NCBI GenBank assembly: GCA_050179755.1
Contig: JBFXEV010000001.1
Span: forward strand, 1,193,994-1,257,993
Direction of reading: 5' to 3'
DNA: 64,000 nt
DNA from: Candidatus Babeliales bacterium
GTDB lineage: Bacteria; Babelota; Babeliae; Babelales; JBFXEV01
Shown: positions 4,620 through 42,068 of the stretch, one piece after another
Position numbering within the stretch: position 1 is the first letter of the stretch
Layout: each line of letters opens with the position of its first letter
Made by a program: the position numbers and the translations under genes
Notes under the pieces: generated by a model
The model's database searches: none
Seen by the model: the letters and a program-made list of their open reading frames with translations, nothing else
Told to the model about the DNA's origin: nothing

Positions 4620-6146
4620 GTGCCAACTATTATCTGTAAAATTACCGATACACCAATTTTAGAAACCAAAGCGCTTGGTAAAGCATTTTTTGTTTCTAGC
4701 CCAGAAGCATTTCCTGAATCTACGCAAAAGTTATTCGGCGCGCATGCAAAGTCACTTATGCACTATGCAGCGCAACAAAACTTTACGGGGGAAATGGGCA
4801 CTTCACTCATACTGCCGGTGGTCAAAGATGATTCTATATCAACTATCATCATACTTGGTCTTGGTGCACGCCAAGGTAAAGACGGTAAAGATGGCATTTC
4901 GGTTGAAAATTATCGCCGAGCAATAGGCTCACTTATTCGTTTGAGTGAAAGCCTTAAGCTAGATACGCTTGCTATCACATTGCCAACAGAGCTTATCGAT
5001 AGTGTTTCAGCCCAATATTTGGCAGAACAAACTGCGCTTATTGCGCATATGGCCGTGTTTAAGCATGATGAATTTATAACAACCAAAAAACCACATGGTG
5101 GTTATACGTTAGAGATTTCTGTGCCAAAAGCTGAGCTTGAAAAAACAAAAGCTGCGGTAGAAAAAGGCACGTTGCTCGCTACCATGGTTAATCGTACACG
5201 TGATTGGATCGATACGCCTCCTTCTCGTTTAACGCCGCCTCATTTGGCAGATTATGCGTTAGAAATTGCTGAGCGTCACAAAATGCCAATAACAATTTTT
5301 GATGAACCAACCATTAATAAAATGGGCATGGGCGGCCTTGCAGGCGTTTCAGTGGGTTCTGAGCTTGATTGCCGTTTTGTAGCTATGGAATATTGGTATG
5401 ACAAAAAGGCGCCAACTATTGCATTTGTGGGCAAAGGCATAACGTTTGATTCTGGTGGGTTAAGCATAAAGCCTGCTGAAAGCATGGAAAACATGAAAGA
5501 TGATATGTCTGGTGCTGCGTGTGTTATCAACGCTATGGACGCTATCGCCACTCTTAAACCAAAAGTAAACGTTATTGGCATTGCACCACTTGCAGAAAAT
5601 TTACCAAGTGGCAACGCCGTAAAGCCGGGTGACGTGCTTAAGTTTTATAATGGTATGACAGCCGAAGTTAAAAATACTGATGCCGAAGGTCGTCTGATAT
5701 TGGCTGATGCACTTTCTTATGCAGTTAAGCATTACTCGCCTGATGCGATTATTGATATTGCAACATTGACTGGTGCATGCGCTTTTGCTCTTGGGCCATT
5801 TTATGCGGGAATAATGGGCAAGGACGAAGAATTGCTTGCGCGCGTAGAGAAAGCTTCAAAAACCACTGGTGAACGTGTTTGGCGTCTACCGTTTGATGAC
5901 GACTATAAGCCAGCGATTCGCTCTAATATTGCTGATTTAAGTAATATTGGTAGCAGGCGGTATAATGCGGGCGCAATTACTGCAGGATTCTTTTTGTATC
6001 CTTTTGTAAATAATACACCATGGGTACACATTGATATTGCAGGTCCTGCTTATGACGTGCCTGATATAAGTTATTTTAGGCCGCAAAGTGCAACGGGTGC
6101 AGGAGTGCGTTTACTTGTAGAGCTTGCGTGTACTTGGGTAAAATAA
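4620..6146 (+). CDS. pepA: Leucyl aminopeptidase (M17)
   Basis: VGKGITFDSGGLSIK, MKDDMSGAA, NTDAEGRLILADAL, DIATLTGA. Confidence 0.95.
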   Translation: MPTIICKITDTPILETKALGKAFFVSSPEAFPESTQKLFGAHAKSLMHYAAQQNFTGEMGTSLILPVVKDDSISTIIILGLGARQGKDGKDGISVENYRRAIGSLIRLSESLKLDTLAITLPTELIDSVSAQYLAEQTALIAHMAVFKHDEFITTKKPHGGYTLEISVPKAELEKTKAAVEKGTLLATMVNRTRDWIDTPPSRLTPPHLADYALEIAERHKMPITIFDEPTINKMGMGGLAGVSVGSELDCRFVAMEYWYDKKAPTIAFVGKGITFDSGGLSIKPAESMENMKDDMSGAACVINAMDAIATLKPKVNVIGIAPLAENLPSGNAVKPGDVLKFYNGMTAEVKNTDAEGRLILADALSYAVKHYSPDAIIDIATLTGACAFALGPFYAGIMGKDEELLARVEKASKTTGERVWRLPFDDDYKPAIRSNIADLSNIGSRRYNAGAITAGFFLYPFVNNTPWVHIDIAGPAYDVPDISYFRPQSATGAGVRLLVELACTWVK

Positions 6147-24402: not shown

Positions 24403-25002
24403 ATGGCAAAAGAAAATTACCTAATAGAAGGAACTATTTTTATGAATAAGAACTACAAAAAAGTTAAAATGTTAGCTGTTTTATTATTGGGGGGATTTTG
24501 TTTTTCTGCTTATGCAATGAATTCAGAAGAAATTGTTCAAGAATCTCCCTATCAGAAATTAATGAATTCTGCTTGTCAAAATGACAATGATGCTGTTACA
24601 GCATTGTTAGCTCAACATCCAGAGTTAGCAAAAGAAGCTACCTCTACTAACCAAGGAATTGATCCACTTAGATGGGCAGCACATCACGGCAATGTAGATA
24701 TGGCGAAACTATTATTGGCTAAAGGATTTACCTTAAGAAAATCAAATGATGGTGCAACAGCATTTCACTCTGCAGCTTATGAAAAACATCATGAAGTTTT
24801 GGCATTGCTCTTAGATCAAGCAGATGCGTCAGCATTAACAACATTGCTTGCTTCTAAAGCTAAAATTAATCATTTATATTTGACACCTTATGAAGCTGCT
24901 TGTGATCGTATTAATAATCCTTGCGCAGAGTTGCTTGAGCCTAGTGCTGTGCAACAGAGAATCGATGTGCGTGGTGCGCTTGCAGCGGAAAATGCAGAAT
25001 AA
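24403..25002 (+). CDS. Secreted ankyrin-repeat protein
   Basis: PLRWAAHHGNVDMAKLLL, GATAFHSAA; AYA-MN. Likely start 24442. Confidence 0.85.
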   Translation: MAKENYLIEGTIFMNKNYKKVKMLAVLLLGGFCFSAYAMNSEEIVQESPYQKLMNSACQNDNDAVTALLAQHPELAKEATSTNQGIDPLRWAAHHGNVDMAKLLLAKGFTLRKSNDGATAFHSAAYEKHHEVLALLLDQADASALTTLLASKAKINHLYLTPYEAACDRINNPCAELLEPSAVQQRIDVRGALAAENAE

Positions 25003-25072
25003 TACTAATAATGGCATGATGTGTTAGATGTTGGGCTGAAATTGTGGATAATAATATTAAGGAGAAGCTAGT

Positions 25073-26611
25073 ATGAAGAAAAGAATAAGTTTACGCCATC
25101 TTATTTCTATATATTGCCTTGTATATATGCCACTTACTCTTGCTATGGATAGAACAAAAAAGGCACTGATGTTAAAAAAAGTTGGCGAACATGCTCAGCA
25201 TACAACCAATACGTTGCAAATGACGTTGCCAACTTCAGCGCAACCAGAGATAAGCGATTTGCGAGAAGTAAAAGTTTTTAGATTGGTGCGTTATGTTGGA
25301 ACACTTGCTGATGCAATCAATCAATCTCAAGATGGTCAAGGAGTTACTTGCCTTGCAGATAAAATGAGATTGGTGGAAAAGTTGCGCGGCCTTGGGGTAA
25401 CGCAAAATGATGCAGTCGCATTAGACCAAATTGAGCAAGACGTATTGCATGAAGTAGAATCAACACTTATTACTTCAGTTGAAGAAGCGCTTAATTTCAT
25501 ATCTCAAGAATTTGGGGTAGAATTTTCTGATGCAAGTGAAAGCCAAACAGAATTGAACTCTCACAGTACTGAATCTCCAGCACCAAGAGTGATGCGGCAC
25601 AAACCTTTAATTATACAAAAAAAGGATACTCAAATATATAAAGCGCTTGCATCAGGTAATCCTGCTACGCTACAAGAGCTTCTTGCAGGCGGTAATACTC
25701 CTGAATTAGACCCTAAAAGATGTACTATTGAGGGTGGCAATGGCGATACGCCGTTATTTTGGGTGCTTGATCCTGAGCTTAAAATTTCTACACAAGCAAG
25801 AAAAGAGATGATTGACTTGCTTTTGGCAGAACGTGTGAGTATTGCCAAAGTTAATGATAATGGTCACACCGTAGTGCATGAGGCGATCTTGAGTGAGCAT
25901 CCCGAAGTTGCTGCATTGTTTCCTTATTTATTTGAAAAAGAAATGACTGAAGGTCTTATTAACCTTCAAGGTCAAACGCCGCTCCATGTGGCAGTTGCAC
26001 AAGGCCTAGTTGATAAAGTGCAGTATATTCTTTCATTGCGCACATCTGCGTTGGAGGAACCTGATTTTGAAAATCAAACGCCGTTACAAGTAGCTTTCAA
26101 TAAACATTTGCCTTCAAAAGATAAATTGGTGATAGCGCATGCATTAATTGAAGCAGGAGCTAATATGGAAGTTACTAATGCAGAAGGCGTGCCACTCATT
26201 TTTGATGTAGTCAATCGGGTAGATCTTGCGGGTGTAGAATTACTTCTCGGGCATGGGGCAAATTGCAGGAGTGTTAATTTACAAAATCATACGTTGTTGG
26301 AATTTGCTCAAGCAAAAATTGGCAAAACAGAAAAACCAGAAGTTGCCCAAAGAATATATGATGTTATAAAGGAATATGTTGAGGGTAAAAGGTTGCCAAG
26401 CTTTTTAAAAGTTGAGGCATCAAAATCGGCTGCTGCAAGCCCTTATGTGAGCATTACTGTTCCTGCAAGCTTACAAGGTCAAGTTGATATGCAAAAATTT
26501 AGAGAAAATATTATACGTGCTTTTGTAACACCGGGCCAAGATGGTGCTTCGTTACTGCAAAAAATGTTAGTTGCATCATTGAATGAAAATAAGGAAGAAT
26601 CACATGAATAA
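25073..26611 (+). CDS. Secreted ankyrin-repeat protein
   Basis: GDTPLFW, GHTVVHEA, GQTPLHVAV; TLA-MD. Confidence 0.88.
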   Translation: MKKRISLRHLISIYCLVYMPLTLAMDRTKKALMLKKVGEHAQHTTNTLQMTLPTSAQPEISDLREVKVFRLVRYVGTLADAINQSQDGQGVTCLADKMRLVEKLRGLGVTQNDAVALDQIEQDVLHEVESTLITSVEEALNFISQEFGVEFSDASESQTELNSHSTESPAPRVMRHKPLIIQKKDTQIYKALASGNPATLQELLAGGNTPELDPKRCTIEGGNGDTPLFWVLDPELKISTQARKEMIDLLLAERVSIAKVNDNGHTVVHEAILSEHPEVAALFPYLFEKEMTEGLINLQGQTPLHVAVAQGLVDKVQYILSLRTSALEEPDFENQTPLQVAFNKHLPSKDKLVIAHALIEAGANMEVTNAEGVPLIFDVVNRVDLAGVELLLGHGANCRSVNLQNHTLLEFAQAKIGKTEKPEVAQRIYDVIKEYVEGKRLPSFLKVEASKSAAASPYVSITVPASLQGQVDMQKFRENIIRAFVTPGQDGASLLQKMLVASLNENKEESHE

Positions 26612-27353
26612 ATTTTATCTGCGTTTTTTTGTTCTTTCTGCTGCACTCTGTCCTTTACTGCTTTGTGCAATGGACGCAAGCATAGTATCACCTGAGAAAG
26701 CTGTGCCACCATCAGACATAGAAAGGCCTATAGCTTTTCCTCTTCATAGAGCTATTGCACAAGGCTTTATTACTGAATCCAGATTATTAGTGGATCATAA
26801 TTCACCTCTTGAACTCCGTGATGCTGATGGGCATACGCCACTGCAAGTTGTTTTTAATTCTCATTTGAATTCGCACACGCGTATTGTTCTTGCCAGTATA
26901 TTGATTGAAGCAGGAGCGAGCATGGAAGTCTTGGATGCCGAAAAATCACCACTTCTTTTTTCTTTAATTAAAAAAGTAAATTTAGATGGTGTTAGGTTAT
27001 TGCTTGGGTATGGTGTGAATCTTAGAAGTACTAATTTCCAAGGCAGAATGCCGTTAATATACGCAGATGAAAAAGTTAATACGTCTGAAAATCCTAAAAC
27101 AGAAGAAATATCAGATTTAATTGCACAGTATTTGGACGGAAAACGTAAACCTGAATTTGCGCATCTTATACAAACGCAAGCAGAGCGAGCGCGTTTATGT
27201 GCAGCAGCGCATCAAAGCGTGCTTGCTGCGTTACGGCAACAACGTGAAGTATTGGAAGAGCAAATGCGGTTGCGCCAAGCAGAAGCAGAACATCTTGCCA
27301 TGTTAGAAAAGAGTTTGCATTCCTCTGTTGATGAATCTGAATCAAAAAACTAG
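26604..27353 (+). CDS. Secreted ankyrin-repeat protein with coiled-coil tail
   Basis: PLHRAIAQG, GHTPLQV; LCA-MD. ATG 26604 preferred over the track start 26583. Confidence 0.85.
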   Translation: MNKFYLRFFVLSAALCPLLLCAMDASIVSPEKAVPPSDIERPIAFPLHRAIAQGFITESRLLVDHNSPLELRDADGHTPLQVVFNSHLNSHTRIVLASILIEAGASMEVLDAEKSPLLFSLIKKVNLDGVRLLLGYGVNLRSTNFQGRMPLIYADEKVNTSENPKTEEISDLIAQYLDGKRKPEFAHLIQTQAERARLCAAAHQSVLAALRQQREVLEEQMRLRQAEAEHLAMLEKSLHSSVDESESKN

Positions 27354-27427
27354 CTTGAAAGATGCAGTAACAAAAGCTACAATTGATCCAAACTAATAAC
27401 TCATCACACACTAGCAAAGGATCAATT

Positions 27428-29482
27428 ATGCTTAAGCATGTTTCAGTTTTTATCATTTCTTTGGCTGCGTTTTTGCCCAATACGTTCTATGCAATGGATC
27501 CTATAGAAATAGCAACGCCTGTCCCACAACCAACTTTGCAGCGCACTCAATCGTTACCAAATCGTAAACTACAGCACATGCCAAGTGTGTTAGATTTACA
27601 TCAATATGAACTTGATGAAGGTAACGAGCAGCAAAGGCAAGCACACGCTGTAACGGTAGCAAGGCAAACACAAGAGCGTCTTAATCGTATGTTCCATGAT
27701 GCCGTTGGTTTGGCTACCGGAGAAAAACCATTGGGAGTTCATGATGAAAGGCATGTGAGCAAACAATTTGCACGAGCGCGTGAACTGCTTGCCCGCGGTG
27801 CAGATAGTAAGTGGGGGTATCCGCTTGCTCATTTTCTTGTAGCATGTAAGTTGCAAGAAGAAGGCCATTGTTGCGAAGTATCTCTAGATCGTGATTTTGG
27901 TGTTCCAGTGCGGGTAACCAATTATTCTACGCGCAAAGTGCAAAATCCTATGCTTTACGGGCAAGCTCATGAATTTCTTGCGTGGCTTGTTGATAATGGC
28001 GCAGACGTTAATCAAGCATGGCCGCAAGACCGTGTTGATGGTTTTACGCATGTTGATGCTCGCGGTGATGAATGTAAATCTAACGTTGTAGCAAAAGCAA
28101 CGGGCATTGTGCCGTTAGCCTATGCATTGCAATTGTGCCGTGAAGGCTGCTGTGTGCAAAAATTGCTTGATGCAGGAGCACAACCCTATAAAGGTGCATT
28201 ATATTATGCATTTCATTCGGCAAATCCATCTGCTGCTTTATTGTTACTTGAAGCAGGTGCAGCGATTGATGAGTTAGATAATCAAGGCAATGGCGCCGCT
28301 CATTGGGCGCTTGCTTTGCATAGCCCAAAATTGCGGCTTGCGGCGCTTAAAGCTTTGCAAGAACGAGGAGCTTCCTTTTCTGTGCCAAATAAAGCGCGTC
28401 ACACTCCCTTGCATATGGCAGTATTTGGTGAATTGGTTAATGAAAATGGTCATACTTATTGGCGAGATATATTAAAAGATGATGCAAGCTGTTTAGCATT
28501 TTTGCTTGAACATGAGCCAGCTCTTAATGCAAAAGGTGCGCAAGGCGTTACTGCTTTGTATGCTGCAGTAGATATGCCAAGCGTGTTTTATGCTGAAAAT
28601 CTTGCGAGCATTTCTCATTCTTTAGCCCGATTTCAAAATGATGTTCCTGCTGGGCAAGCGCTTGCACAATTATGGAAAGATAAAAAGTCTTACGACTTTT
28701 TTGCACAAAATAATGCCATGGTTGCTTTGTTATTAGCAGCAAAGGCTGATACATCAATTGCTCAAAAGGATGGGTTTACGCCAATTCATCGAGCGGCACA
28801 ACGCGGCATGGCAGAATGCGTGCGCTTACTTATAGCGGCTGAGGCTTTGGTAGACGCACAGGATAAAGAGTTTTTAACGGCTTTGCATCACGTGGCAGTA
28901 GCTAAGATTCCTTATGCAGAAAAAGCACAAATTATTAAGTATCTTACCGAGGCAGGAGCAAGCACGGAAGCTATTGATAAAGAAGGTAATACTGCGCTTA
29001 TAAGGGCAGCCATTGCTGGTGATGTTGATGGAGTTTCGTTGTTACTAGGATTTGGTGCTCGCGTTGATGCACGTAATTATAGTATGTTTACAGCAGCTGA
29101 AATGGTTAGATCAAAAGAGTGTGGTTACAAGCGTTATGAAGATATTTTGAAGCTGCTTGCAGACTATGCTCAAGGCAAAAGAAAACCACATTCAAGAGAT
29201 GGTAAACCTTTTGTGGATATTGCAGAAGGTGCAACGAGTCCTGAACAGGTAGGTGATACGTTGGGTAATAATGAATGGCCTGTAGAAGAACAAAGAGCTG
29301 CTGAACTACAACTATTAACTCGTGCACTTGCGCGTATGGAGCGTGAAAAAGTTGCTGCGCACATGCCAACGCCAGAAGAAAAAGCGCTTAGAGATGCAGA
29401 AATACATGCTTTGCGTCAAGCCAAAAAGATTATTGAGGGGGAAAAGGCAACATCAACAGCGTTCCCAAGTGTGAGGGTTTAG
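27428..29482 (+). CDS. Secreted ankyrin-repeat protein
   Basis: Many ANK repeats (HTPLHMAV, GFTPIHRAA, GNTALIRAA); FYA-MD. ATG 27428 follows AAAGGA. Confidence 0.9.
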   Translation: MLKHVSVFIISLAAFLPNTFYAMDPIEIATPVPQPTLQRTQSLPNRKLQHMPSVLDLHQYELDEGNEQQRQAHAVTVARQTQERLNRMFHDAVGLATGEKPLGVHDERHVSKQFARARELLARGADSKWGYPLAHFLVACKLQEEGHCCEVSLDRDFGVPVRVTNYSTRKVQNPMLYGQAHEFLAWLVDNGADVNQAWPQDRVDGFTHVDARGDECKSNVVAKATGIVPLAYALQLCREGCCVQKLLDAGAQPYKGALYYAFHSANPSAALLLLEAGAAIDELDNQGNGAAHWALALHSPKLRLAALKALQERGASFSVPNKARHTPLHMAVFGELVNENGHTYWRDILKDDASCLAFLLEHEPALNAKGAQGVTALYAAVDMPSVFYAENLASISHSLARFQNDVPAGQALAQLWKDKKSYDFFAQNNAMVALLLAAKADTSIAQKDGFTPIHRAAQRGMAECVRLLIAAEALVDAQDKEFLTALHHVAVAKIPYAEKAQIIKYLTEAGASTEAIDKEGNTALIRAAIAGDVDGVSLLLGFGARVDARNYSMFTAAEMVRSKECGYKRYEDILKLLADYAQGKRKPHSRDGKPFVDIAEGATSPEQVGDTLGNNEWPVEEQRAAELQLLTRALARMEREKVAAHMPTPEEKALRDAEIHALRQAKKIIEGEKATSTAFPSVRV

Positions 29483-30003: not shown

Positions 30004-31389
30004 ATGTCATCAACAGCCCTACGCCCCAAACATAAATCTCACGATGCGGCTCAGATATTGGGCAAACGTTTGCCTTATTCTGATGAAGCAGAAAAAGCAG
30101 TGCTTGGTGCATTGCTTCTTAATGATGAGTATATGCACCAAGTTTCCGAATTCTTATTACCAAGTGATTATTATCATACTGCACATCGCATTATTTTTCA
30201 GGTAATGCTGGAACTTGTGGCTCAAGAAAAGCGGATTGATATTATTACGCTTCAAGACCATCTTACCAAAACAGAACAGCTTGAAGCTGTTGGTGGTATC
30301 GTATATTTGATGGCATTACAAGAAGATATTCCTTCTGTAGGTTTGATTAGCCAGCACGCCAAAATTATTAAAGAAAAAGCTGTGCTGCGCGAACTTATTA
30401 ACTCTGCCACACAAATTATTGGTACGTGTTATGCGCAAGATGATAAAGAGATAGATGCTGTGCTTGATCAAGCAGAGCAAACTATCATGCAAATAGCAAA
30501 TAAGCGTGCGCAGCAAAGTTTTGTGCAGCTTAATATTTGGCTTAAAAAGACCTTTGTTCATTTAACTGATATCAGGAAAAGCCGCAAAGGCATTACTGGT
30601 GTGCCTACTGGGTATCACAAGCTTGATGCAATGACCTCTGGTTGGCAGCCAGGAGATTTTGTGGTGCTTGCCGCGCGGCCTTCTATGGGTAAAACAGCGC
30701 TTGCGCTTTCTCTTGCTATGCATGCAGCACAATCGGGTGGCAGTGTGGGTTTTTTCTCGCTTGAAATGTCTGCAGAGCAGTTGACTATGCGTTTGCTTTC
30801 ATCGCAATCGGGCGTGGCGCATCATGGCATTCGTAATGCAACCATTAACACTAATGAATGGACAAGTTTAACCAACGTGGCAGCTCAAATGGGCACCATG
30901 AAGTTGTTTATTGATGATACGGCAATGGTGAGTATTATGGATTTACGGGCAAAAGCTCGTAAACTTAAAATTGATCAAGGCCTTTCTCTGCTGGTGATTG
31001 ACTATTTGCAGCTCTTGCATTCAACGCAAAAGCATGAAAATAGACATCAAGAAGTTTCTACTATTTCTCGTTCGCTTAAAGCACTTGCTAAAGAACTTGG
31101 AATTCCTATAATCGCTTTATCTCAGTTATCGCGTGCTGTTGATAGCAGGCTTGATAAACGCCCAATGCTTTCTGACCTACGGGAATCTGGTGCAATCGAG
31201 CAAGATGCAGATGTTATCATGTTCTTGTACCGCGACATTGTCTATAATCCTGATACAGAAAATCCAGCACTTGCGGAACTTATTATTGGCAAACAGCGCA
31301 ACGGCCCTACGGGCACGGTATATTTAAATTTTATGCGCGAGCTTACGCGTTTTGACGAAGCAGATTATGAAGGCTCTGGGCCTGAGTAA
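30004..31389 (+). CDS. dnaB: Replicative DNA helicase
   Basis: AARPSMGKT, FSLEM, IDYLQL, LSQLSR, DLRESGAIEQDAD, KQRNGPTG. Confidence 0.97.
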   Translation: MSSTALRPKHKSHDAAQILGKRLPYSDEAEKAVLGALLLNDEYMHQVSEFLLPSDYYHTAHRIIFQVMLELVAQEKRIDIITLQDHLTKTEQLEAVGGIVYLMALQEDIPSVGLISQHAKIIKEKAVLRELINSATQIIGTCYAQDDKEIDAVLDQAEQTIMQIANKRAQQSFVQLNIWLKKTFVHLTDIRKSRKGITGVPTGYHKLDAMTSGWQPGDFVVLAARPSMGKTALALSLAMHAAQSGGSVGFFSLEMSAEQLTMRLLSSQSGVAHHGIRNATINTNEWTSLTNVAAQMGTMKLFIDDTAMVSIMDLRAKARKLKIDQGLSLLVIDYLQLLHSTQKHENRHQEVSTISRSLKALAKELGIPIIALSQLSRAVDSRLDKRPMLSDLRESGAIEQDADVIMFLYRDIVYNPDTENPALAELIIGKQRNGPTGTVYLNFMRELTRFDEADYEGSGPE

Positions 31390-31420: not shown

Positions 31421-32860
31421 TCAGCATATCACACAGCACATCGCAGCAGGTGTTCCTAAGGATCTTGCAACTTGTGTTGTTGGTGCATTTTCAGCAGCAA
31501 GAGGCTCTTCAGGCGCATCCTGCGTAATTAAAACTTCAGGAGCCTCAGGAGACATCACAAGTGACCACGCAGCTTTAAACGGATTAGTTCCTGGTAGCTG
31601 TGCAACTGCATCTTCCCGCTCTGCATGTATAAATGCTGCACAATCATTTTCAAGCGTTTCGGGTTTCAAAAGTACTGTGCCTTCAATTTCAACGTCAACT
31701 GGTATTGAGGTTAGTTCAATATCATGTGCAGTTTTATAGTTTGCATTACGTATCAAAAGTATTTGCTGTAATTTCTTTGTACGTATGACGAGTGCTTGAA
31801 CGCCAGCTGTTATGGTATTATTATCGTTTGCATGCAATATCTGGCGCAGTAGCTTAGGTTGCATATGGCAGTGGGGAATTACTAGCTTATTGCGATCGCC
31901 ATACAATTCAGGGGACAATCTTCTTATACAACATAAAAAAGTGAAGATGCTTTTACAATCCGTTGTGCCATGAAAAAGTGCATGATACAACAATAATTTT
32001 TTTGCATGAACAATCATTTCTCGAGCAAATAGATCAACCCCATTTTTTATGCCAGTATATGATTGTGCTGCCATGTGAAACGGCGAAGATCCAACACCAA
32101 TATCATTTTTGATACGGCGAGGGTGATGATAAATTTCATATTCTGAATTATCTCTTTGGTCCTCTTGTGTGAGCGTTTCAAGATTAGCGCCACCATCGAG
32201 CAATAGAGAAAGTGTAGTTGTGTCCCAATCAGTATCTAATGCATAATGTATAGGGGCTCTGCCAGTGTACGCAATTGTATTGAGCGGCACTCCGTGTGCA
32301 ATTAATAATTTTAATGCTTCATGTGCTCTAAAATAGGCTGAAAGATGGCAACCGGTGATGTGGGGTGTGCCCATTAGGTTGGCATGTGAGCGAACTAGTT
32401 CTTGCAGTGCATCTACATTATTATAAGATGCTGCATATTCAACCGGAGCTTTGCCATATGCATCGCGGTGGCTTGCATTTGCTTTAAATTCAAGTAAGAG
32501 TGCGACTAGTGCTTTTTGCGATACACCAATTCTTTCAAAATCGGTAGGAGACGTGTCACATACTTCAATAAGAGCCGTGCGATTTTCCGCAAACGGTGCA
32601 TCAACCTCTGCACCTTGCTCTAATAAATTGCGCAGTGTACTAACACTCTCATATGCATAATGTTGAGAGTACCCGTTACGGCTAAGAACATCTTGACGTA
32701 AGAGCCGCACTACAGCAGAAGTAAACATCTTGTTGCGTTCTTCCTGTTTTATTGCTTGTTCATCTGATTCAAGCATATGGTCCATGGCCTGCATATTTGT
32801 AGAACCTGTTAAGAGGAATAAAGGAGCAAGGAGAAAAATGCTATTTAATAAATAACGCAT
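31421..32860 (-). CDS. Secreted ankyrin protein ending in CaaX (CCVIC)
   Basis: ANK repeats; MQA-MD; C-terminus AAMCCVIC*. Confidence 0.88.
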   Translation of the reverse strand: MRYLLNSIFLLAPLFLLTGSTNMQAMDHMLESDEQAIKQEERNKMFTSAVVRLLRQDVLSRNGYSQHYAYESVSTLRNLLEQGAEVDAPFAENRTALIEVCDTSPTDFERIGVSQKALVALLLEFKANASHRDAYGKAPVEYAASYNNVDALQELVRSHANLMGTPHITGCHLSAYFRAHEALKLLIAHGVPLNTIAYTGRAPIHYALDTDWDTTTLSLLLDGGANLETLTQEDQRDNSEYEIYHHPRRIKNDIGVGSSPFHMAAQSYTGIKNGVDLFAREMIVHAKKLLLYHALFHGTTDCKSIFTFLCCIRRLSPELYGDRNKLVIPHCHMQPKLLRQILHANDNNTITAGVQALVIRTKKLQQILLIRNANYKTAHDIELTSIPVDVEIEGTVLLKPETLENDCAAFIHAEREDAVAQLPGTNPFKAAWSLVMSPEAPEVLITQDAPEEPLAAENAPTTQVARSLGTPAAMCCVIC

Positions 32861-34149
32861 GATTCTTTTACTTTGTCAGCATATAATTGAATAGTTGTTT
32901 TTATGTTAGGCATCCATGCAGATGGTGCATCTTGTTCCAAGTTACCATAATACCCGGCTTTTAGCACATTCCAATTTGAAAGGCCATCAAGGTTATTAGT
33001 GCGAACTGCTTCTATAAATTGTTGTAAATGTTCATCATACATTGTATAGAGTAGGAGAGTATGTGATGAATTATTTTTGCTCTGTGCTTTGGCAAAGCAT
33101 TCACATTTATATGCAGTACTACCGCGTTCATTTTCAGCAGCAACTATTGTTTTTAGAAATGCCAGTCGTGTGGCTAGTAACTTATACGCTAATGGAAACA
33201 TTTTATTCTTTGAAGCTAAGACACAGACCAATACTGTTGGTGAAAAATGCTTGACTAAGTACGGTATGAGTGGTTCCATAATGCCATTGTGCAGATCTTT
33301 AGAATGAACTATTCGGTTTAAGCAACATAAAAAAGTAAGCATTCCTTTGTTGGTAATTGGTTTGCGGCCAGGAAAAAATAATGCATGATGCAAAAGAACG
33401 CGTTGAAGTGCTTGTGAATTCTTTGTTGGTTGTGCCACAAGATGAAAAACGGTAGAACCAGCTAGAATTAAAGTTGATGCGGTAGCATCTACTATTTCTG
33501 TAGTGCTTGTATCAAGCCTCGCTCCATGTGTTAACAGCACTGCAGCAGCTTTAGGTTTTTCCAAGTACACTGCAAGATGAAGTGGTGACATGCCAGATCG
33601 TTCAAGGCAATTCATATCTGCTCCAGCATTGCCAAGCCAAGTAATACACCTTACGCAGTTGTTATTCGCTGCTTTATGACACGGAGTCCAATCACGGTAA
33701 TTTCGTGCATTAAGATCACCCTGTGCATTTTTAAGTAATTCAAGAGCATGAACACGATCATACTGTGCTGCATAGTGTATGGGTGTTTGCTGTGAGTTAT
33801 CTCTAGCGTTAGGATCGGCTCCGTGCGCAAGTAATATGGCAACTAAGTCATCTTTGCCATGAGAAGGAACCTGCCGCGGATCTTTGAAATAACTTAATTT
33901 GGGATTATCATTCCTGGAGTTTGCAATAATAACAGCGTGCAATGCAGCCTGCCCCAGCTCATTTCGAGCATTCACTTGTGCACCTTGGTTTAAACACTGA
34001 GTAACTCCATTTACGTCGTTTAAAGAAGCATAAGTAATAAGACTTTCATTGAGTTGAGTTTGTTTTACGGGATCAATTTCTTTAGCCATTGCTTGTGCAT
34101 TGCTCGAGCTTAACGTACAGATTAGCCATAGTATTAACAAATCACGCAT
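32845..34149 (-). CDS. Secreted ankyrin protein ending in CaaX-like (CVIY)
   Basis: ANK repeats; AQA-MA; C-terminus KESCVIY*. Confidence 0.88.
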   Translation of the reverse strand: MRDLLILWLICTLSSSNAQAMAKEIDPVKQTQLNESLITYASLNDVNGVTQCLNQGAQVNARNELGQAALHAVIIANSRNDNPKLSYFKDPRQVPSHGKDDLVAILLAHGADPNARDNSQQTPIHYAAQYDRVHALELLKNAQGDLNARNYRDWTPCHKAANNNCVRCITWLGNAGADMNCLERSGMSPLHLAVYLEKPKAAAVLLTHGARLDTSTTEIVDATASTLILAGSTVFHLVAQPTKNSQALQRVLLHHALFFPGRKPITNKGMLTFLCCLNRIVHSKDLHNGIMEPLIPYLVKHFSPTVLVCVLASKNKMFPLAYKLLATRLAFLKTIVAAENERGSTAYKCECFAKAQSKNNSSHTLLLYTMYDEHLQQFIEAVRTNNLDGLSNWNVLKAGYYGNLEQDAPSAWMPNIKTTIQLYADKVKESCVIY

Positions 34150-35327
34150 TTTGATCCACTTCGGTTGAGCATTTCATCATAAGCAGCTTTAAACATATTG
34201 TTGCGAGCAATTTTATCTAGAGTGCCTTGCTCAAGCGCAGTAATAAAATTTTCCATATCCGTTTGCACTATTTCAGGAGAGAAATAGACGTGTGATACAT
34301 TACCTTTGTGCGTTTTGCTTTCAATTGCTGCAGCGGTATTTTTAGCGCTATCTTCTACCACCAAAATCTCGCGTAAGCGATTTGCTCGTCGAGTTAATAA
34401 TGAACGTGCTTGTGCGCGTGTTTGTTGGTCGCGACTAATAAGCATATCTACAAAAGAAACTCTCTGTGGATCTTTATTCCAAGGGTCAAAAAGGAGCGCA
34501 TGGCACAATAAAACTTTTTTCATGGCAACTCTGTCATGAAAGGCTGCTACATGAAATGGTGTTGCTCCTGTGGCAAATGGCAAGCCTAATCTTAATTTAG
34601 ATCGTTCGATTTTGGGAGCTTGTGTTGTGATATCAAGCTGCCCACCATGTGATAAAACTGTATGTAACGTGTCAGCATTTTCATGCCCGCCATGAAACGC
34701 TCCATGATTATCTACAATTGCCCAATGTACCGGTGCGCCGCCAAATTTATCAATACAATTCATGTTCGCGCCGGCACTGTGCAACCATGCAAGCGTTCTG
34801 AGTGCACGCCATTCTACGGCTATAGAGGCTGCAGTGCAACCATCATTAGTCTGCGCATCTGGATTTGCACCAGCTTTTTTAAGTAATTCAAGAACGGGAA
34901 TATTATCACGAGATGCTGCCTCATAGAAAGGAGTAGCAAGATACCAGTTTGGCGCATGCACATCAGCGCCTTGTGCAAGAAGATAGGCAACCAATTGCGT
35001 GCTATTTCCTGCAAAGGAGCATGCTTCATGCAAAGCGGTTTGGCCCCATTTGTTAGCCCCATTAATTTGAGCGCCCTGTGCAAGGCATGCTTTGACTGAT
35101 TTCAATGAATTTTGAGCAGCGCTCTCAATCAGAAATTCATTGAGCAAATTTTGTGCATTCTCTTCTGATTGCTCGTGTGTTTGTGCTGCGCCTAGGCTTT
35201 GCGCGGCTTGTGGTTTGCTCTGTGCAAACAGAGGAGTTCTCTCGTCTGGTACGTATACAGCTTCCATAGCTTGTGCCTTTGAAAAAATACATACAAGCGT
35301 AAAAATAACTTGTGTTATATGAAGCAT
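34134..35327 (-). CDS. Secreted ankyrin protein ending in CaaX (CVIC)
   Basis: ANK repeats; AQA-ME; C-terminus SGSKCVIC*. Confidence 0.88.
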   Translation of the reverse strand: MLHITQVIFTLVCIFSKAQAMEAVYVPDERTPLFAQSKPQAAQSLGAAQTHEQSEENAQNLLNEFLIESAAQNSLKSVKACLAQGAQINGANKWGQTALHEACSFAGNSTQLVAYLLAQGADVHAPNWYLATPFYEAASRDNIPVLELLKKAGANPDAQTNDGCTAASIAVEWRALRTLAWLHSAGANMNCIDKFGGAPVHWAIVDNHGAFHGGHENADTLHTVLSHGGQLDITTQAPKIERSKLRLGLPFATGATPFHVAAFHDRVAMKKVLLCHALLFDPWNKDPQRVSFVDMLISRDQQTRAQARSLLTRRANRLREILVVEDSAKNTAAAIESKTHKGNVSHVYFSPEIVQTDMENFITALEQGTLDKIARNNMFKAAYDEMLNRSGSKCVIC

Positions 35328-35681
35328 ATTATTTTCCTATTAATTATAAGCGCATATGTTGCTTTAAAATTGGTTAATGTCCGGCTGAGTTGTGAATTGT
35401 CAATGCAACCAATACTATGCTGGCAAATTTAAGAGTTTACGAGGAGGCTGTTATGTTACTCTATTTTTCCTCACATGTATTTCAACAAGAACATAGTATA
35501 TTGAAAGTTTGCCAATTTGCCAGTCAGATAAGTCCGTAATTATTTGGCGGTGTAAGTATAATATTGCAGTATAATTAAGCTAATTTATTTAAGTAAACGG
35601 TATTTGCGGATCAATTTCTTTTAATGCTTCTGTGCACTTTGTTATACTACCCTCGAATAGTAATAAAATTATTGCAGAGGG

Positions 35682-36458
35682 TTGTGTGTTATGAAAATGT
35701 TATATGCATTAGTAGGTATAAGCATGTTAGGGCTGTCAGTAATGGTTTTTAGTAAAGAAGAGTTTTTAGTTATAGGGCACCGTGGCGCCTGTGGCTATGT
35801 ACCAGAAAATACGCTTTCATCTTTTAAAAAAGCGGTTGAGCTTGGTGTAGACATGATAGAGTTTGATGTGCATTGTTGTGCATCAGGCGAACTTATGGTG
35901 ATCCATGATAATACGCTCGACCGTACAACAAACACCACAGGTTATATAAAAGATTTTACCTTAGATCAACTAAATAACGCGGTTAACATAAAAAATTCAA
36001 AAGAGCGTATTCCAACGCTTAACGAAGTTCTTGATACTATTGGTCACGCAGCAATGATTGCCATTGAATTAAAAGGACCTGGTACCGCGCAGCCCGTCGC
36101 GCGTATTGTGCAAGAGTATTTAGATAAGGGGTGGCACTCGGATAATTTTTATATTCTCTCATTTGATCATCTGCAACTTCAAGAATTCCATGAATATTTA
36201 CCTGAGATTAAGCGTTGCGCAACTGTATATGGTATGCCACTTGAATATCCTCTCTATGCAAAAAAGCACGGCTTTAATGCCGTGGCAACATGTTATGAAT
36301 ATGCTACTCAACAATTTGTGGCTGCGGCGCATAAAGCAGGGCTTAAGGTATTTATATATACAGCCAATGATCCACATATTATCAAAAAGCTGCTTGAGAT
36401 TGGCGTTGATGGCATATTTTCAGATTATCCTGATAGAATTCAGCACGAACTGAAATAG
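35682..36458 (+). CDS. Glycerophosphodiester phosphodiesterase
   Basis: IGHRGACGYVPENT, IEFDVH, IHD, IELK, GVDGIFSDYPD. Confidence 0.93.
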   Translation: MCVMKMLYALVGISMLGLSVMVFSKEEFLVIGHRGACGYVPENTLSSFKKAVELGVDMIEFDVHCCASGELMVIHDNTLDRTTNTTGYIKDFTLDQLNNAVNIKNSKERIPTLNEVLDTIGHAAMIAIELKGPGTAQPVARIVQEYLDKGWHSDNFYILSFDHLQLQEFHEYLPEIKRCATVYGMPLEYPLYAKKHGFNAVATCYEYATQQFVAAAHKAGLKVFIYTANDPHIIKKLLEIGVDGIFSDYPDRIQHELK

Positions 36459-36517: not shown

Positions 36518-38707
36518 TTATATTGTTTTCATTGCAAGTTCACGATACTCCAACCATTGCTCCACAATATTTTCTGGCCACGAAGCATTAATATCTGCCA
36601 CGTTGCCGTGTGCATCAAATATTGGCTCAAAATGCGGGAAAATATATGCAGTTACTTTTAAATTGCCAATAATTGCTTGTTGATTACGTTTAAGTATGCT
36701 TACATGTTCAGGCACACGTACGTTTCGTGCATACGTATCAAGCAGTTGTTGTAAACTTTGCCCATCTGCAGTGGAATGTATGCGCTGCACTTCTATTGCA
36801 AGGTCTTTAATAAGTTGCAATGTTTTTGCACGGTCTTTAATGACATACCCAAGTACCGTATATTCAGTGCCATTAATATTCTTTTTTTCTTCTTGCAAGG
36901 TAACGCCGCCATGATCTTGTAACCAATTGGCAATGGTAGTATTGGCTTGCGCATGAGCGCCCAACACTTTGGTTGCACCATCTGGCAAGTTTTGCAGCCG
37001 CTTGAGTGCCGTGTTTGCCATATCGCAAATCAACATATCAATTAACTTTTCTTTACCAATTTTGGCAGGCCATTCTTTGAAAAGATCTGCTGTTGCAAGT
37101 TCATCAAATGAATAAATACTTGTATAAAGGGCCAAGATTTCTGCACGCAGTTCTTCAAGCGCAGCGCCAGCTCCTGCAAAAAATTCATTTAAGTTTGCGT
37201 TGGTGACTGGTATGGTATCGCCAATGTTATGCGTTACACCATCAATAGTCATTGGGTCGCCAGCGCGGAACGTGTGCATATCAAGCCGCCCGCTGCCATG
37301 CCCAAGTGTTTCATGCAAAATGCAATGCACGTTCCAAATATCTGCAGATAGTTGTTGCTCAGGGTCATGGATTGCACGCCATTCAGCTTCATCTGCTAAA
37401 TAGGAAAGTTGTTTTGCAAGAACTGGGTTCAATGCAGTTCCAAGCCCCTTGCTTGATTGATAAATAATTTGCTTAGAACCATGTTGTGCTCTAATTTCAG
37501 GATAATTGGGCAAGCAATACGCAGCAACTATAGAAAGTGGCCCTAATTCACCTGAACCTACTGCCAAGCTATTAATTGATGCATTAGGAATGCTTGCAAG
37601 ATCATGCAAGTTAGTGCGTTTCCATGCTGCAGGGAATGGCAATTGGCTTTCAATGCTAGGCAATATACGGTTGAGTGAATCCATATCAATGCTTTTAATG
37701 GTAACTTCCGCTTGGAACATGCCGCGAAATTCTTTAGGGTCACAATAGTTTTCAATAAACCCAAAACAATAATCAAGGCGGCTTTTGGTTTTAGTCCAAG
37801 CAATGCAGTGCCGTTTAAATGCGTCTTCACACCCTGTGCGTACGTGCTCAATTAAATGAGTTAAACTTTCTGGAATATATTCATCAAAAATATGAGGATG
37901 TTTATGCGCATAATCACATGCTTTTTCAAGCCAATGGCATGCAACAGTAAGTTCATCTGAATATTTGCCACCAATTTTATAGCGTTCAACGGTGGGTATA
38001 CGCATGCCATCTTGGCAAGTTACTGAATAATAGGCATTCAAGTGTGCACGATCTTGTGCGCTTAATGCATTATAATCTTCTTCAGTAAAATCTGGTGCAT
38101 AAATATTTACCGCGCTTTGTTCTATGCTATTTGGCACGCATACAGAGTGTTCATGTGTGTGATCAAAAAGTGAAGATTCAACTTCTTGGAGTAATGAAAC
38201 ATATTTTGGTTCATCGAGAGCATGAAGCACTTGGTGAAAATTTTCATGTGTTAAATTAGTAAGGCCCAAGCGAGCAGGTGAGCGTTTTTCATTGGCATGT
38301 TCACGAATGAAATATTGGCCATGATTTGCCCAGAGATACACAAGATATGTTGTAAGTTGTTCAAAAAAAAGTTCATGTTGAGCAAACACGTGCACGCGAG
38401 GATCATTTTTATGCAGATATATATGCTCGCAAAGCTGTGTGATTGCATTGGCGTGTCTATGCAATTGATCTGCTATAATGCGATTACCGGGTAATCCTGC
38501 ACGGAATAAATAATACATAAACACGCGTTCTTCTGGTGTGAGGCTATTATAAAGATCTGGCAACGATTCATTATAACGAGTAGCAATTTCGTGAAATTGG
38601 TCAATAGTAGCAGGAGCGGGAGCAAGCTTTGGCACAGTATGATCCTTTGAATATGCAAGCTCTGCAATGCAGAGTAGTGCAAGGGCGATTATAAGTTTTT
38701 TTTCCAT
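36518..38707 (-). CDS. Dipeptidyl peptidase III (M49), exported
   Basis: HETLGHGSG (HEXXGH), EELRAE, GFIENYCDP; signal peptide. Confidence 0.88.
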   Translation of the reverse strand: MEKKLIIALALLCIAELAYSKDHTVPKLAPAPATIDQFHEIATRYNESLPDLYNSLTPEERVFMYYLFRAGLPGNRIIADQLHRHANAITQLCEHIYLHKNDPRVHVFAQHELFFEQLTTYLVYLWANHGQYFIREHANEKRSPARLGLTNLTHENFHQVLHALDEPKYVSLLQEVESSLFDHTHEHSVCVPNSIEQSAVNIYAPDFTEEDYNALSAQDRAHLNAYYSVTCQDGMRIPTVERYKIGGKYSDELTVACHWLEKACDYAHKHPHIFDEYIPESLTHLIEHVRTGCEDAFKRHCIAWTKTKSRLDYCFGFIENYCDPKEFRGMFQAEVTIKSIDMDSLNRILPSIESQLPFPAAWKRTNLHDLASIPNASINSLAVGSGELGPLSIVAAYCLPNYPEIRAQHGSKQIIYQSSKGLGTALNPVLAKQLSYLADEAEWRAIHDPEQQLSADIWNVHCILHETLGHGSGRLDMHTFRAGDPMTIDGVTHNIGDTIPVTNANLNEFFAGAGAALEELRAEILALYTSIYSFDELATADLFKEWPAKIGKEKLIDMLICDMANTALKRLQNLPDGATKVLGAHAQANTTIANWLQDHGGVTLQEEKKNINGTEYTVLGYVIKDRAKTLQLIKDLAIEVQRIHSTADGQSLQQLLDTYARNVRVPEHVSILKRNQQAIIGNLKVTAYIFPHFEPIFDAHGNVADINASWPENIVEQWLEYRELAMKTI

Positions 38708-38874: not shown

Positions 38875-39414
38875 TTGATTATGTCAAAAGTATCAACCTG
38901 GGGCATGTTGGCCCTTACTCTTTCCCTGTCTTGCTCAACGCTGGGCATGGACTATATTCCAAAAGCTCTTAAATCGGGTAGGCTCTGGGGTGCTGTTGCC
39001 GTGGCTACGGTAATTTCAGGGGCTATTTATTATCTTGAATATTGGCAAGATGCGCCAAATCGCGATTTGTTTCAGGGTGTTTGCGAGGGTGATTACAACA
39101 AAGTAGCACTTGCGCTCTATGACGGCGCTGATCATTTACGCAGAGCAAAAGATGGCAGCACGTTGCTCCATTATGCAGTGCGGCGCGGGCATCGCGATAT
39201 TGTTCACTTGTTAACGGCAGCTTCACTACCTGGCAGGCCACTTATTAATATAGCAGATGTTGCTGGCAATACGCCACTTTATTATGCGGTAGAAAAAAAT
39301 GATGCATCGATGGTAAAATTACTTATCTTATCTGGCGCATGTAAAGAATGCACGTCAGACGTGCGCATGACACAAGAATTAGAAGAAAAAATAGAGAAGC
39401 TGGCCTACACTTAA
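38875..39414 (+). CDS. Ankyrin-repeat protein with signal/TM segment
   Basis: GSTLLHYAV, GNTPLYYAV; TLG-MD. Confidence 0.85.
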   Translation: MIMSKVSTWGMLALTLSLSCSTLGMDYIPKALKSGRLWGAVAVATVISGAIYYLEYWQDAPNRDLFQGVCEGDYNKVALALYDGADHLRRAKDGSTLLHYAVRRGHRDIVHLLTAASLPGRPLINIADVAGNTPLYYAVEKNDASMVKLLILSGACKECTSDVRMTQELEEKIEKLAYT

Positions 39415-40358: not shown

Positions 40359-42068
40359 ATGGCGGCATCAGTATACAAACGATTTACTAGTCTTATTTGT
40401 ATTACTTTATTCATGAGCACGCTACATGCAATGGAGCCGCAAAAACCATCGGCAAGTCCGTTTGCATTACGTAAGAAAACTGAGGTAAGGCTTCCACGTG
40501 ATAGCAGTACCTATAGTGGCATTGAAGAGAGTGATAGTGAAGATAGCCTTACTTTACCAACGAGCTCTTCTCAATCTACTAAAGCACAAACAACGGTTTG
40601 GGTTCCAGCGCGTATGCGAAAAAAGGCATCAGAATCATCTTCTTCTGTATCCCCAGAAGAAAAAATAGATGTAACGCCAACAGAATCACCAATGCTTTCA
40701 CCAAGGCCTGCGCGGCAACAGCAATGGGTATCTCCTCGCTTGCGCAGAGCATCATTGAAAGAAAAGAGTAAGTTTGCAACATTAAAAAAAGCTAAACCGG
40801 TTCAAGAAGATAAAGTGCAAGAAGAACCAGATAGCGCCCAACTTAATCGCAGATCCATGGATGTGTTGGAGTTGAGTAGTGGCAGCGTATTGCAACTGGA
40901 TAAAGAGTTCCATGCAAAATTAAAAGATCTTAATCCTGCGTTTCATGCGGCAATAAAAAAGGGAGATCTTGAGAAAGCATCATTATTGGTTCGCTCTGGC
41001 GCCGATGTGCGCAGCACAGATTCATCGGGACAGACAGCACTTGACTATGCGTTAAATGCTAAAAATTTGCAACTTCTTTATTTCCTACGAGATCATGGTG
41101 TTTCAGTGCCTACTGTGTCATTGCCAACAAGACTAAGCATACCTGGCTATAAAAACAATAAAAAAACATTAGTAATGAGGCCTGCAAAACTAGATGAAAG
41201 TTCTGACGAAGAATTAGCAATTATCTCTCCTGCTCTTTCGCCTCGCGCAGCACCAATGTCATTGCAAAGCCCCGGCGGCTATGATGAGCCAGAATTGAGT
41301 GCAGTGCAGGATGGCGATGGTTATTCCATGCCAGATTTGGGCAAGGCGCGTACAAGCGGCCTGAGACTTGAACGTAGCAGCGATACTATTGAATATAGTG
41401 ATGGGTCTATTATTCAACTTGATAAACGTTATCATACAAAGCTTAAAGGCTATAAGGCACGCTTTGACAAGCTTACAAAAAAAGCTCAATTAGACGACAA
41501 AGATTTTAATGAACTTAAAGCACTTATTCGCAGCGGTGTTGATATAAATGCGCCCAATTCAGATGGCGTGCCCCCGATAGTGCAGGCTGTTCTTGATAAT
41601 AAGTGGTATCTTTTTAAATTTCTCGTGAAACATGGTGCTGACGTTAATAAACAAGGCAAAAGAATTGAAGCGCGGTCAGATAATCCTACGCTCAAACGAG
41701 AAGTTGCGCAAGCTACTGCTTTATCAGAAGCGGCGCGCTTGGGGAGAGTGCGTTATGTGCAGTATTTACTTTCAGATGATGTCAAGGCAGATCCTAATCT
41801 TGCCGATGGTCATGGTGCTACTCCATTAATGATTGCTGTGCTTGCTATAGGGGATGCTGCCGTTACCATAGCGCGCTTGCTTGTTAACGCTGGTGCAGAT
41901 GTGTTTGCAAAAAATAGCCGAGGTCAAGATGCCTTGGCGTTTGGGGGCATGTTCAGAGCTAAAGAGAATTACTTGGATTATGTAGATCGCAAGCAACAAG
42001 AAGCGCTTGCCGGTAAAGCGTCGCAAAGTGTTGTTGAAGGCTATGTAGAAAGTGTTATAGAAAAATAA
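40359..42068 (+). CDS. Secreted ankyrin protein with Ser/Pro-rich disordered regions
   Basis: LHA-ME; GQTALDYA, GVPPIVQAV, GATPLMIAV; internal duplication. Confidence 0.88.
   Translation: MAASVYKRFTSLICITLFMSTLHAMEPQKPSASPFALRKKTEVRLPRDSSTYSGIEESDSEDSLTLPTSSSQSTKAQTTVWVPARMRKKASESSSSVSPEEKIDVTPTESPMLSPRPARQQQWVSPRLRRASLKEKSKFATLKKAKPVQEDKVQEEPDSAQLNRRSMDVLELSSGSVLQLDKEFHAKLKDLNPAFHAAIKKGDLEKASLLVRSGADVRSTDSSGQTALDYALNAKNLQLLYFLRDHGVSVPTVSLPTRLSIPGYKNNKKTLVMRPAKLDESSDEELAIISPALSPRAAPMSLQSPGGYDEPELSAVQDGDGYSMPDLGKARTSGLRLERSSDTIEYSDGSIIQLDKRYHTKLKGYKARFDKLTKKAQLDDKDFNELKALIRSGVDINAPNSDGVPPIVQAVLDNKWYLFKFLVKHGADVNKQGKRIEARSDNPTLKREVAQATALSEAARLGRVRYVQYLLSDDVKADPNLADGHGATPLMIAVLAIGDAAVTIARLLVNAGADVFAKNSRGQDALAFGGMFRAKENYLDYVDRKQQEALAGKASQSVVEGYVESVIEK

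Follow-up and report, generated by a model that had tools for sequence, protein, structure and literature searches.

A conserved CaaX-type tail on predicted Sec-exported ankyrin-repeat proteins of a Babeliales bacterium

Why would bacterial proteins that start with a Sec-type signal end in four residues that look like a eukaryotic lipid-anchor signal? The question is raised by a window of 64,000 nucleotides from Candidatus Babeliales bacterium (GCA_050179755.1, contig JBFXEV010000001.1, positions 1,193,994 to 1,257,993), in which three overlapping head-to-tail open reading frames (ORFs) on the minus strand encode ankyrin-repeat paralogs of 397, 434 and 479 amino acids. The Dependentiae (TM6), to which Babeliales belong, are widespread obligate parasites of protists, and much of their small genomes is given to ankyrin proteins with signal peptides, without injection systems. 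An earlier reading of the locus, made from the sequence only, had noted three ankyrin proteins with the ends SKCVIC, ESCVIY and MCCVIC, signal-like N-termini and common motifs, all of which the ORFs, Pfam and the alignment bear out. It had interpreted them as host-prenylated effectors of the vacuole membrane. The family, the Sec signals, the conserved cysteine and the tail scores uphold that interpretation in part; the vacuole membrane gained no support, palmitoylation appears weak, and there is no genome-wide excess of such ends. Our best reading is that these are ankyrin effectors exported by Sec and a type II secretion system (T2SS) and farnesylated by the host, and we consider it rather more probable than its negation. 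Since the last four residues copy a eukaryotic lipid-anchor signal, the proteins are probably fastened to host membranes by host enzymes.

The family and its C-terminal tail

Gene 1 (34134..35327, minus strand; 397 amino acids) ends in GSKCVIC and matches Ank_4, Ank and Ank_2; gene 2 (32845..34149, minus strand; 434 amino acids) ends in KESCVIY and gene 3 (31421..32860, minus strand; 479 amino acids) in AAMCCVIC. All three products score above the Pfam ankyrin cut-offs (for example 73.3 and 67.3 bits for Ank_4), and at E ≤ 0.01 Pfam returned ankyrin families only. Pairwise identity is 28-29 %, with invariant columns in the three-way alignment at G257/F261/H262/A265 (G..FH..A), L290/L291/H293/A294/L295 (LL.HAL) and N426/K429/A430 (N..KA). 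The AlphaFold2 (AF2) model of gene 1 (predicted local distance difference test, pLDDT, 83.5; predicted template modelling score, pTM, 0.78) contains an ankyrin-repeat stack (34488..35141, minus strand; about residues 63-280), with Pfam stretches over residues 63-170 and helix pairs over 75-278, and its best structural matches in Foldseek are all ankyrin or DARPin proteins (E down to 1.4e-10). The family-specific helical region that follows (34170..34568, minus strand; residues 254-386; AF2 pLDDT 88.8) holds the motifs G.TPFH, LL.HAL and N.FKAA. A separate fold for this region was considered and rejected, as its best structural match (1nfi_F, Z 5.0 over 61 residues, rmsd, the root-mean-square deviation, 1.9) is to the ankyrin repeats of IkB-alpha; comparison with the ESM Atlas returned ankyrin clusters only (0.93-0.95, with low shared-feature counts). 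An unconserved linker of 11 residues in gene 1 (34149..34181, minus strand), 31 in gene 2 and 44 in gene 3 then leads to the tail: CVIC in gene 1 (34137..34148, minus strand; pLDDT below 50 for residues 392-397), CVIY in gene 2 (32848..32859, minus strand) and CVIC in gene 3 (31424..31435, minus strand), where an extra cysteine precedes it.

The three genes are paralogs, as the sequence-only reading had proposed on looking at the array, but the array is not the whole family. A fourth paralog in the same genome (G000:277201-278433) ends in DNCVIC and aligns end to end with the window proteins. Eight copies are present in a sister genome of the same genus (G017). Five of these lie in a syntenic locus running from the glpQ-like gene to dnaB, and include orthologs of gene 1 (407 amino acids, CTIC), gene 2 (443 amino acids, QKCVIC) and gene 3 (492 amino acids, EKCVVC); the remaining two array copies have no Cys tail, and three dispersed copies end in CVIC, CVVC and CVIC. 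A word-based homolog search gave three close homologs, all orthologs of gene 1, namely P0002 (RCTIC), P0003 (NCIIC) and P0004 (SCVIC); its other 116 matches (P0005-P0120) were generic ankyrins, none of which has a cysteine at position -4 or a terminal CxxC (0/116). A profile of the C-terminal region matched 29 proteins among 1.84 billion representatives. Twenty of these matches were retrieved, four more are proteins of the window genome itself (P0124 being the one retrieved), and six long multi-stretch matches (P0137, P0141, P0142, P0145, P0146 and P0148) stand outside the tail counts below. New members from this search end in CFIC, CIIC, CVIC, CMIL (P0133) and CVIC; P0131, a close relative of gene 3, ends in ESKCIIC; six full-length retrieved members stop a few residues past the N.FKAA motif and two others are fragments. 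Among the 201 Babeliales-order genomes searched, the family was found in two (G000 and G017), with one further weak match (E 1.8e-4) whose ORFs carry no Cys tail. On our best reading the family is a genus-restricted set of ankyrin-repeat effectors. The tail is a trait of this family, not of the whole secretome or, in the matches sampled, of other Babeliales.

The tail is far better conserved than what precedes it. Of the 29 family members examined, 18 carry C-[VTIFM]-[IV]-[CYL], always at the exact C-terminus, with C in all 18 at position -4, V12/T2/I2/F1/M1 at -3, I16/V2 at -2 and C16/Y1/L1 at -1. From the last conserved motif to the cysteine the linker measures 11 to 44 residues in these members, and identity, averaged over pairs, reaches 0.75 in the final four residues against 0.13 in the twelve before them. 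A four-residue tail that is conserved while the adjacent linker is not argues that the tails are more than chance. In the AF2 models of both the whole protein and the C-terminal region the last 5-6 residues fall below a pLDDT of 50. Conservation of the cysteine in orthologs, on which the earlier reading had staked its case, was found in all three G017 ortholog pairs (CTIC, CVIC, CVVC) and in P0002-P0004. A maximum-likelihood tree of 20 of 27 rows (G017_239, G017_402, P0128, P0131, P0134, P0139 and P0143 left out) places tailed members in every major clade and scatters the untailed ones, which points to an ancestral tail followed by several losses. The CVIY of gene 2 is one TGT>TAT transition away from the CVIC of its G017 ortholog. 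The suggestion that the extra cysteine of MCCVIC is palmitoylated appears weak, as this residue is absent in the two closest relatives (NEKCVVC and ESKCIIC).

Two further features of the C-terminal ends can be noted. The untailed G017_364 (L003:2703-3797) and P0144, which form one clade in the tree, end in the Trp-rich stretches GWGSYFLGWLW and IIAKALSWFW; judged from sequence, these may represent an alternative, lipid-independent membrane-binding end. A P-S-x-W element occurs in several linkers, and a contribution of this element to membrane binding would be speculative.

The variation that the family does allow stays within the tails scored as prenylatable. Berger et al. 2022 tabulated all 8000 Cxxx motifs, of which 489, the top performers of two genetic screens, form the yeast positive set (PMC9231725). 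According to the table rows for the seven family tails, five (CVIC, CTIC, CVVC, CMIL and CVIY) belong to the yeast prenylation-positive set, and all seven (these and CIIC and CFIC) are scored 1 by both PrePS and the support vector machine (SVM) SVM-ESM-1b. All four predictors listed (SVM-ESM-1b, FlexPepBind, PrePS and Freq) accept CVIC, CTIC, CIIC and CVVC, and three of the four accept CMIL and CFIC. Yeast Ras1 itself ends in CIIC. This motif lies outside the yeast positive set, from which, according to the methods section, sequences natural to yeast were removed (PMC9231725). In this table the PrePS prediction called for by the sequence-only reading came out positive, as did, for the window tails, the other scorings apart from FlexPepBind and Freq for CVIY. 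That reading had also regarded CVIY as ending in a less canonical residue, a view we correct: with SVM 1, PrePS 1, FlexPepBind 0 and Freq 0, the motif is listed in both the prenylation-positive and the cleavage-positive yeast sets. The calls should be read against the share of Cxxx space that the predictors accept, given as 20 % for PrePS and 33 % for SVM (PMC9231725). Taken over all seven variants, the table scores indicate that family variation stays inside prenylatable space, including the two tails that break the CxxC pattern (CVIY and CMIL). Because the part of a review that treats the last residue assigns M, S, A or Q to farnesyltransferase (FTase) and L or I to geranylgeranyltransferase I (GGTase-I) (PMC13524398), CMIL may be geranylgeranylated instead.

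Export signals and secretion machinery

All three window proteins begin with an n-h-c type N-terminus, a hydrophobic core of 9-11 residues and an AxA-like site: MLHITQVIFTLVCIFSKAQA before ME in gene 1, MRDLLILWLICTLSSSNAQA before MA in gene 2 and MRYLLNSIFLLAPLFLLTGSTNMQA before MD in gene 3. With the predicted cleavage point marked by an arrow, the signal peptides comprise residues 1-20 of gene 1 (35268..35327, minus strand; SKAQA↓ME), residues 1-20 of gene 2 (34090..34149, minus strand; SNAQA↓MA) and residues 1-25 of gene 3 (32786..32860, minus strand; TNMQA↓MD), the latter two from sequence and alignment; the AF2 model of gene 1 shows a helix over residues 2-16 and then disorder over 15-44. 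On inspection these N-termini have what Sec and signal peptidase I look for, namely an n-region, an h-region of 8-12 residues and small residues at -3 and -1. An AGGA about 10 nucleotides before the first ATG of gene 1, with none before the inner ATG, supports the longer, signal-bearing form.

The genome that carries the array (1.525 Mb in a single contig, 39 % GC, 96 % complete) is that of an obligate Babeliales (Dependentiae) parasite of protists, and contains three open frames matching the TLC nucleotide transporter and 149 Ank_2 matches. Its export machinery includes SecY, two signal peptidases I and two T2SSE ATPases, as well as a T2SS-like cluster (G000:C1:497033-505491) in which a T2SSC-PDZ gene is followed by two secretins (850 and 863 amino acids) flanking a PilM/T2SSL-like gene. 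Marker searches of the genome for type IV, III and VI secretion systems (T4SS, T3SS, T6SS) found no VirB4, T4 coupling protein, FHIPEP or VipB, and protein prenyltransferase alpha (PPTA) repeats were likewise not found in it. The proposal that a Sec signal takes the place of a T3SS or T4SS is thus supported in silico. This doubled set of secretins and of signal peptidases I agrees with a secretome of very large size.

A pattern at the predicted mature N-terminus extends well beyond the family. In exported-like proteins genome-wide, a methionine very often stands directly after the predicted signal-peptidase site, with Asp, Glu or Gln as the next residue. Counted from the hydrophobic core, offset 15 holds 61 Met and offset 16 holds 48, where 11.3 would be expected, and a Met falls in the post-cleavage zone in 281 of the 539 exported-like ORFs against 147 expected; it is preceded by A (110), S (38) or G (29) and followed by D (60), E (49) or Q (34). 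In the window this codon is seen at 35266-35268, 34088-34090 and 32783-32785, and the A↓M-D/E/Q pattern recurs in family members from other assemblies. We know of no previous description of it. The methionine may be left over from the start codon that these proteins had before they acquired a signal, or it may be a mature N-terminus adapted to the host cytosol.

Cysteine content was also compared genome-wide. As a rule, exported proteins favor an even number of cysteines. Here the exported-like mature proteins hold 1.45 % Cys against 1.26 % in cytoplasmic-like ones, and an even number of cysteines occurs at a frequency of 0.48 against 0.45. The absence of an even-Cys bias fits work in a reducing compartment and hints at a secretome that can do without disulfide bonds.

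Competing explanations

Several observations weigh against host farnesylation. The motif tables describe the yeast and human FTase, not the protist enzyme, and the signal peptides were called by eye and by a rule-based scan, not by a trained predictor. Eleven of the 29 members (nine full-length, two fragments) have no tail, and 16 of the 18 tails carry both cysteines, which also fits a CxxC site. A Sec-exported protein still has to pass the outer membrane, and possibly that of a vacuole, before it could meet a cytosolic FTase. A cysteine at -4 is no commoner in exported-like than in other ORFs of the genome (8/539 versus 13/790, Fisher p = 1.0, with the fourth paralog classed as non-exported owing to a called upstream start), so that the excess of CaaX ends among secreted proteins for which the sequence-only reading had suggested looking is absent. 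Nor do such ends recur in other Babeliales genomes, where none of 30 sampled matches to C[VIM]IC-stop ends an ORF of at least 150 amino acids.

The background to the last two counts is as follows. Over the whole genome, 26 of the 1493 ORFs have C at -4, which is no enrichment, since the counts for the other positions among the last 15 span 12-36. A loose C-a-a-X pattern picks out six ORFs, of which four are the family, one encodes a 131-amino-acid protein that looks ribosomal, and one a protein of 345 amino acids without a signal. Across the 201 Babeliales genomes the DNA pattern for C-[V/I/M]-I-C-stop has 258 matches against about 116 in a reversed control; since none of the sampled loci ends an ORF of that length, this excess was taken as compositional and does not point to a wider use of CaaX in Babeliales. 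Outside the family one protein drew attention, a 438-amino-acid WD40-repeat protein with a signal peptide (G000:C1:222206-223522, minus strand), which has the K-Ras-like polybasic end SKKRTKKCHIM; CHIM scores SVM 1, PrePS 1, FlexPepBind 0 and Freq 0. Its three best relatives in G017 have no Cys tail, and it was left as a single case and not taken as a second conserved CaaX effector. From its KKRTKKCHIM end it is possibly a second, young one.

The main competing explanation, which we judge unlikely, is that the tail is a bacterial C-terminal CxxC used in the periplasm or extracellularly as a metal site, an intermolecular disulfide or a signal for recognition or attachment, and that its fit to CaaX is a coincidence. 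The prevalence of cysteines at both -4 and -1 agrees with this, and so does the Sec signal, which makes the periplasm the first compartment entered. However, the second cysteine is not invariant: CVIY and CMIL lack it, yet both fall in the experimentally prenylatable set. The middle two residues are always hydrophobic and the one at -2 is beta-branched in 18 of 18 tails, which is the CaaX rule. Moreover, in the AF2 models the tail is a disordered end with no Cys or His partner nearby, the generic ankyrin homologs share neither the cysteine at -4 nor a terminal CxxC, and the exported proteins show no bias towards even cysteine numbers.

An explanation that we hold to be more improbable still places the proteins in the cell envelope, through an uncleaved N-terminal anchor or by retention, with the ankyrins acting in the periplasm or on the surface, like the periplasmic ankyrins of other bacteria, and the tail being irrelevant or a sorting signal. 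In its favor, the signal peptides are rule-based calls and the release step is inferred, and the homolog search also returned exported ankyrins from free-living bacteria. Against it, all family members in the alignment have AxA-type sites after short h-regions with a small residue at -1, and an obligate parasite with so large a number of Ank_2 matches fits a host-directed use. In addition, the selective retention of a prenylatable tail would be left unexplained.

The third alternative arises from the DNA itself. Genes 1 and 2 overlap by 16 nucleotides (34134..34149, minus strand; ATGCGTGATTTGTTAA), read as K-C-V-I-C-stop in gene 1 and M-R-D-L-L in gene 2, and genes 2 and 3 by another 16 (32845..32860, minus strand; ATGCGTTATTTATTAA), read as S-C-V-I-Y-stop and M-R-Y-L-L. 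The shared 16-nucleotide module ATGCGTNATTTRTTAA thus encodes the CaaX tail and stop of one gene and, in the other frame, Met-Arg-x-Leu-Leu of the next signal peptide, and a relic of it, ATGCGTTATTTGTTAA, lies after the 443-amino-acid gene of G017 (L003 ~5196-5211). The module suggests tandem duplication with a unit boundary inside it, together with translational coupling, if its sequence is a guide. That the tail is a mere by-product, a junction copied by tandem duplication or gene conversion and kept for the sake of the next start and its Met-Arg n-region, would agree with the two window junctions, the G017 relic and the silence of the C>Y change of gene 2 in the overlapping frame (TTG>TTA, Leu), but we regard it as very improbable and largely refuted, because the tail is kept where nothing overlaps it (in gene 3, with the codons TGT GTG ATA TGC TGA unlike those of the other copies, in the fourth paralog, in the dispersed G017 copies, and as CTIC in the G017 407/492 pair, whose likely next start, MRYVL, lies 16 codons downstream), its synonymous codons and stop codons vary among copies, and it persists between proteins that are 28-35 % identical as well as in family members of other assemblies.

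As each CaaX-coding end at these two junctions overlaps the next start by 16 nucleotides, the three genes probably form one translationally coupled unit. On the gene 3 side the unit is flanked by a convergent dnaB (30004-31389), and no downstream gene overlaps gene 3; on the gene 1 side stands a divergent GDPD (glpQ-like) gene (35682-36458). The intergenic region common to this gene and gene 1 (35328..35681, minus strand) is the probable promoter region of the unit, and no promoter site was assigned within it, since it holds 17 promoter-like matches against 14.4 +/- 4.1 in shuffled sequences. A look-up of sequencing runs listed three DNA runs, all from a single study and each a possible source of this assembly, and no RNA run. 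The neighborhood is rich in other ankyrin genes (24403-29482, 38875-39414 and 40359-42068; 199, 512, 256, 699, 179 and 569 amino acids), several of whose products have signal ends of the A↓M-D/E type and none of which has the Cys tail. A further neighbor on the minus strand (36518-38707) encodes a 729-amino-acid protein with a signal-like N-terminus, a Peptidase_M49 match of 98 bits and the motifs HETLGH and EELRAE; it had no match in NCBIfam. The dipeptidyl-peptidase III (DPP III) family, to which Peptidase_M49 corresponds, is normally cytosolic, and this protein looks like an exported DPP III-like peptidase.

Proposed route and known systems

If the proteins are farnesylated by the host, their route could be pictured as follows. 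A cleavable Sec signal would take them across the inner membrane, as the sequence features, SecY and the two signal peptidases I suggest, and release would follow by way of the T2SS-like secretins or of outer-membrane vesicles. The proteins would then arrive in the host cytosol, a step for which the conserved tail is the sole argument. There, going by the motif tables and the AnkB precedent described below, host FTase would recognise the exposed C-[V/T/I]-I-C on its flexible linker and add a farnesyl group, probably followed by removal of -aaX and methylation. Finally, the ankyrin stack, a scaffold for binding proteins, would be tethered by the lipid to the cytosolic side of a host membrane, where it would bind a host partner. 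A single farnesyl alone confers weak binding to endomembranes. No polybasic stretch precedes the family tails and the extra cysteine is unconserved, so weak endomembrane binding would be expected here too; the vacuole membrane named by the sequence-only reading gained no support from any analysis made.

Parts of this route have precedents in other systems. Substrates of Legionella type II secretion are reported to reach the host cytosol (PMC5478897). In Chromulinavorax destructans, signal peptides are reported on 44 % of all proteins and 78 % of ankyrin proteins, Sec is the only export described in the sections available, outer-membrane vesicles are seen in food vacuoles, and the cells later lie in the host cytoplasm (PMC6561590).

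Only an enzyme of the eukaryotic cytosol can make use of a CaaX tail, and its retention under selection on proteins exported by Sec argues that at least part of the secretome acts at the cytosolic side of host membranes. A wider claim can be made only tentatively, and we hold it to be less probable than not: that the tail is the first molecular evidence of a Dependentiae Sec/T2SS secretome acting in the host cytosol, that the many other ankyrin, WD40 and leucine-rich repeat (LRR) proteins with signal peptides are true cytosolic effectors, and that the mature Met-Asp/Glu/Gln is a second adaptation to the cytosol, maybe as a stable or acetylatable N-terminus. If this were true, the family would be a natural reporter for a new way of delivering effectors without injection.

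That hosts prenylate bacterial effectors is already known, and so is an ankyrin effector with a CaaX tail. What is new is the phylum, the Sec signal without any injection system found, the conserved and expanding family, and the compact stop/start module. Our literature searches, one query of which was too broad to exclude such a paper and in which preprint supplements and Table S1 of Price 2010 lay outside the scope, found none linking Dependentiae with CaaX.

Salmonella SifA is one host-prenylated CaaX effector. The Legionella Pel proteins are described as likewise bearing a eukaryotic CaaX box on a bacterial protein, which leads to host lipidation and membrane targeting (PMC13081727). Both differ from the present family in being T4SS or T3SS substrates of Pseudomonadota, and none of them has been described with a Sec signal or from Dependentiae.

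The closest precedent is AnkB of Legionella pneumophila, whose C-terminal CVLC is farnesylated by enzymes of the host, those of Dictyostelium among them, in the passages of Price et al. 2010 that treat its lipidation (PMC2916131). Like the window proteins, it is an ankyrin protein of an amoeba parasite with a Cxxx tail ending in Cys, and host FTase, RCE1 and ICMT modify it by farnesylation and processing so that it becomes anchored to a membrane on the cytosolic side (PMC2916131); in the corresponding rows of the 8000-motif table its CVLC scores identically to the CVIC of the family. However, AnkB lacks a Sec signal and is delivered by injection through the Dot/Icm T4SS, whereas the window proteins are of Sec type; it has an F-box, whereas they match ankyrin families only; and no sequence homology between the two was detected beyond the ankyrin repeats.

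A further counterpart is Chromulinavorax, a member of the same order, which has a large ankyrin complement, mostly with Sec signals, and no injection system in the sections of its description available (PMC6561590), and the word "prenyl" is absent from that paper. Set beside these systems, our finding extends CaaX mimicry from the T3SS and T4SS of Pseudomonadota to a distant phylum and a different export route.

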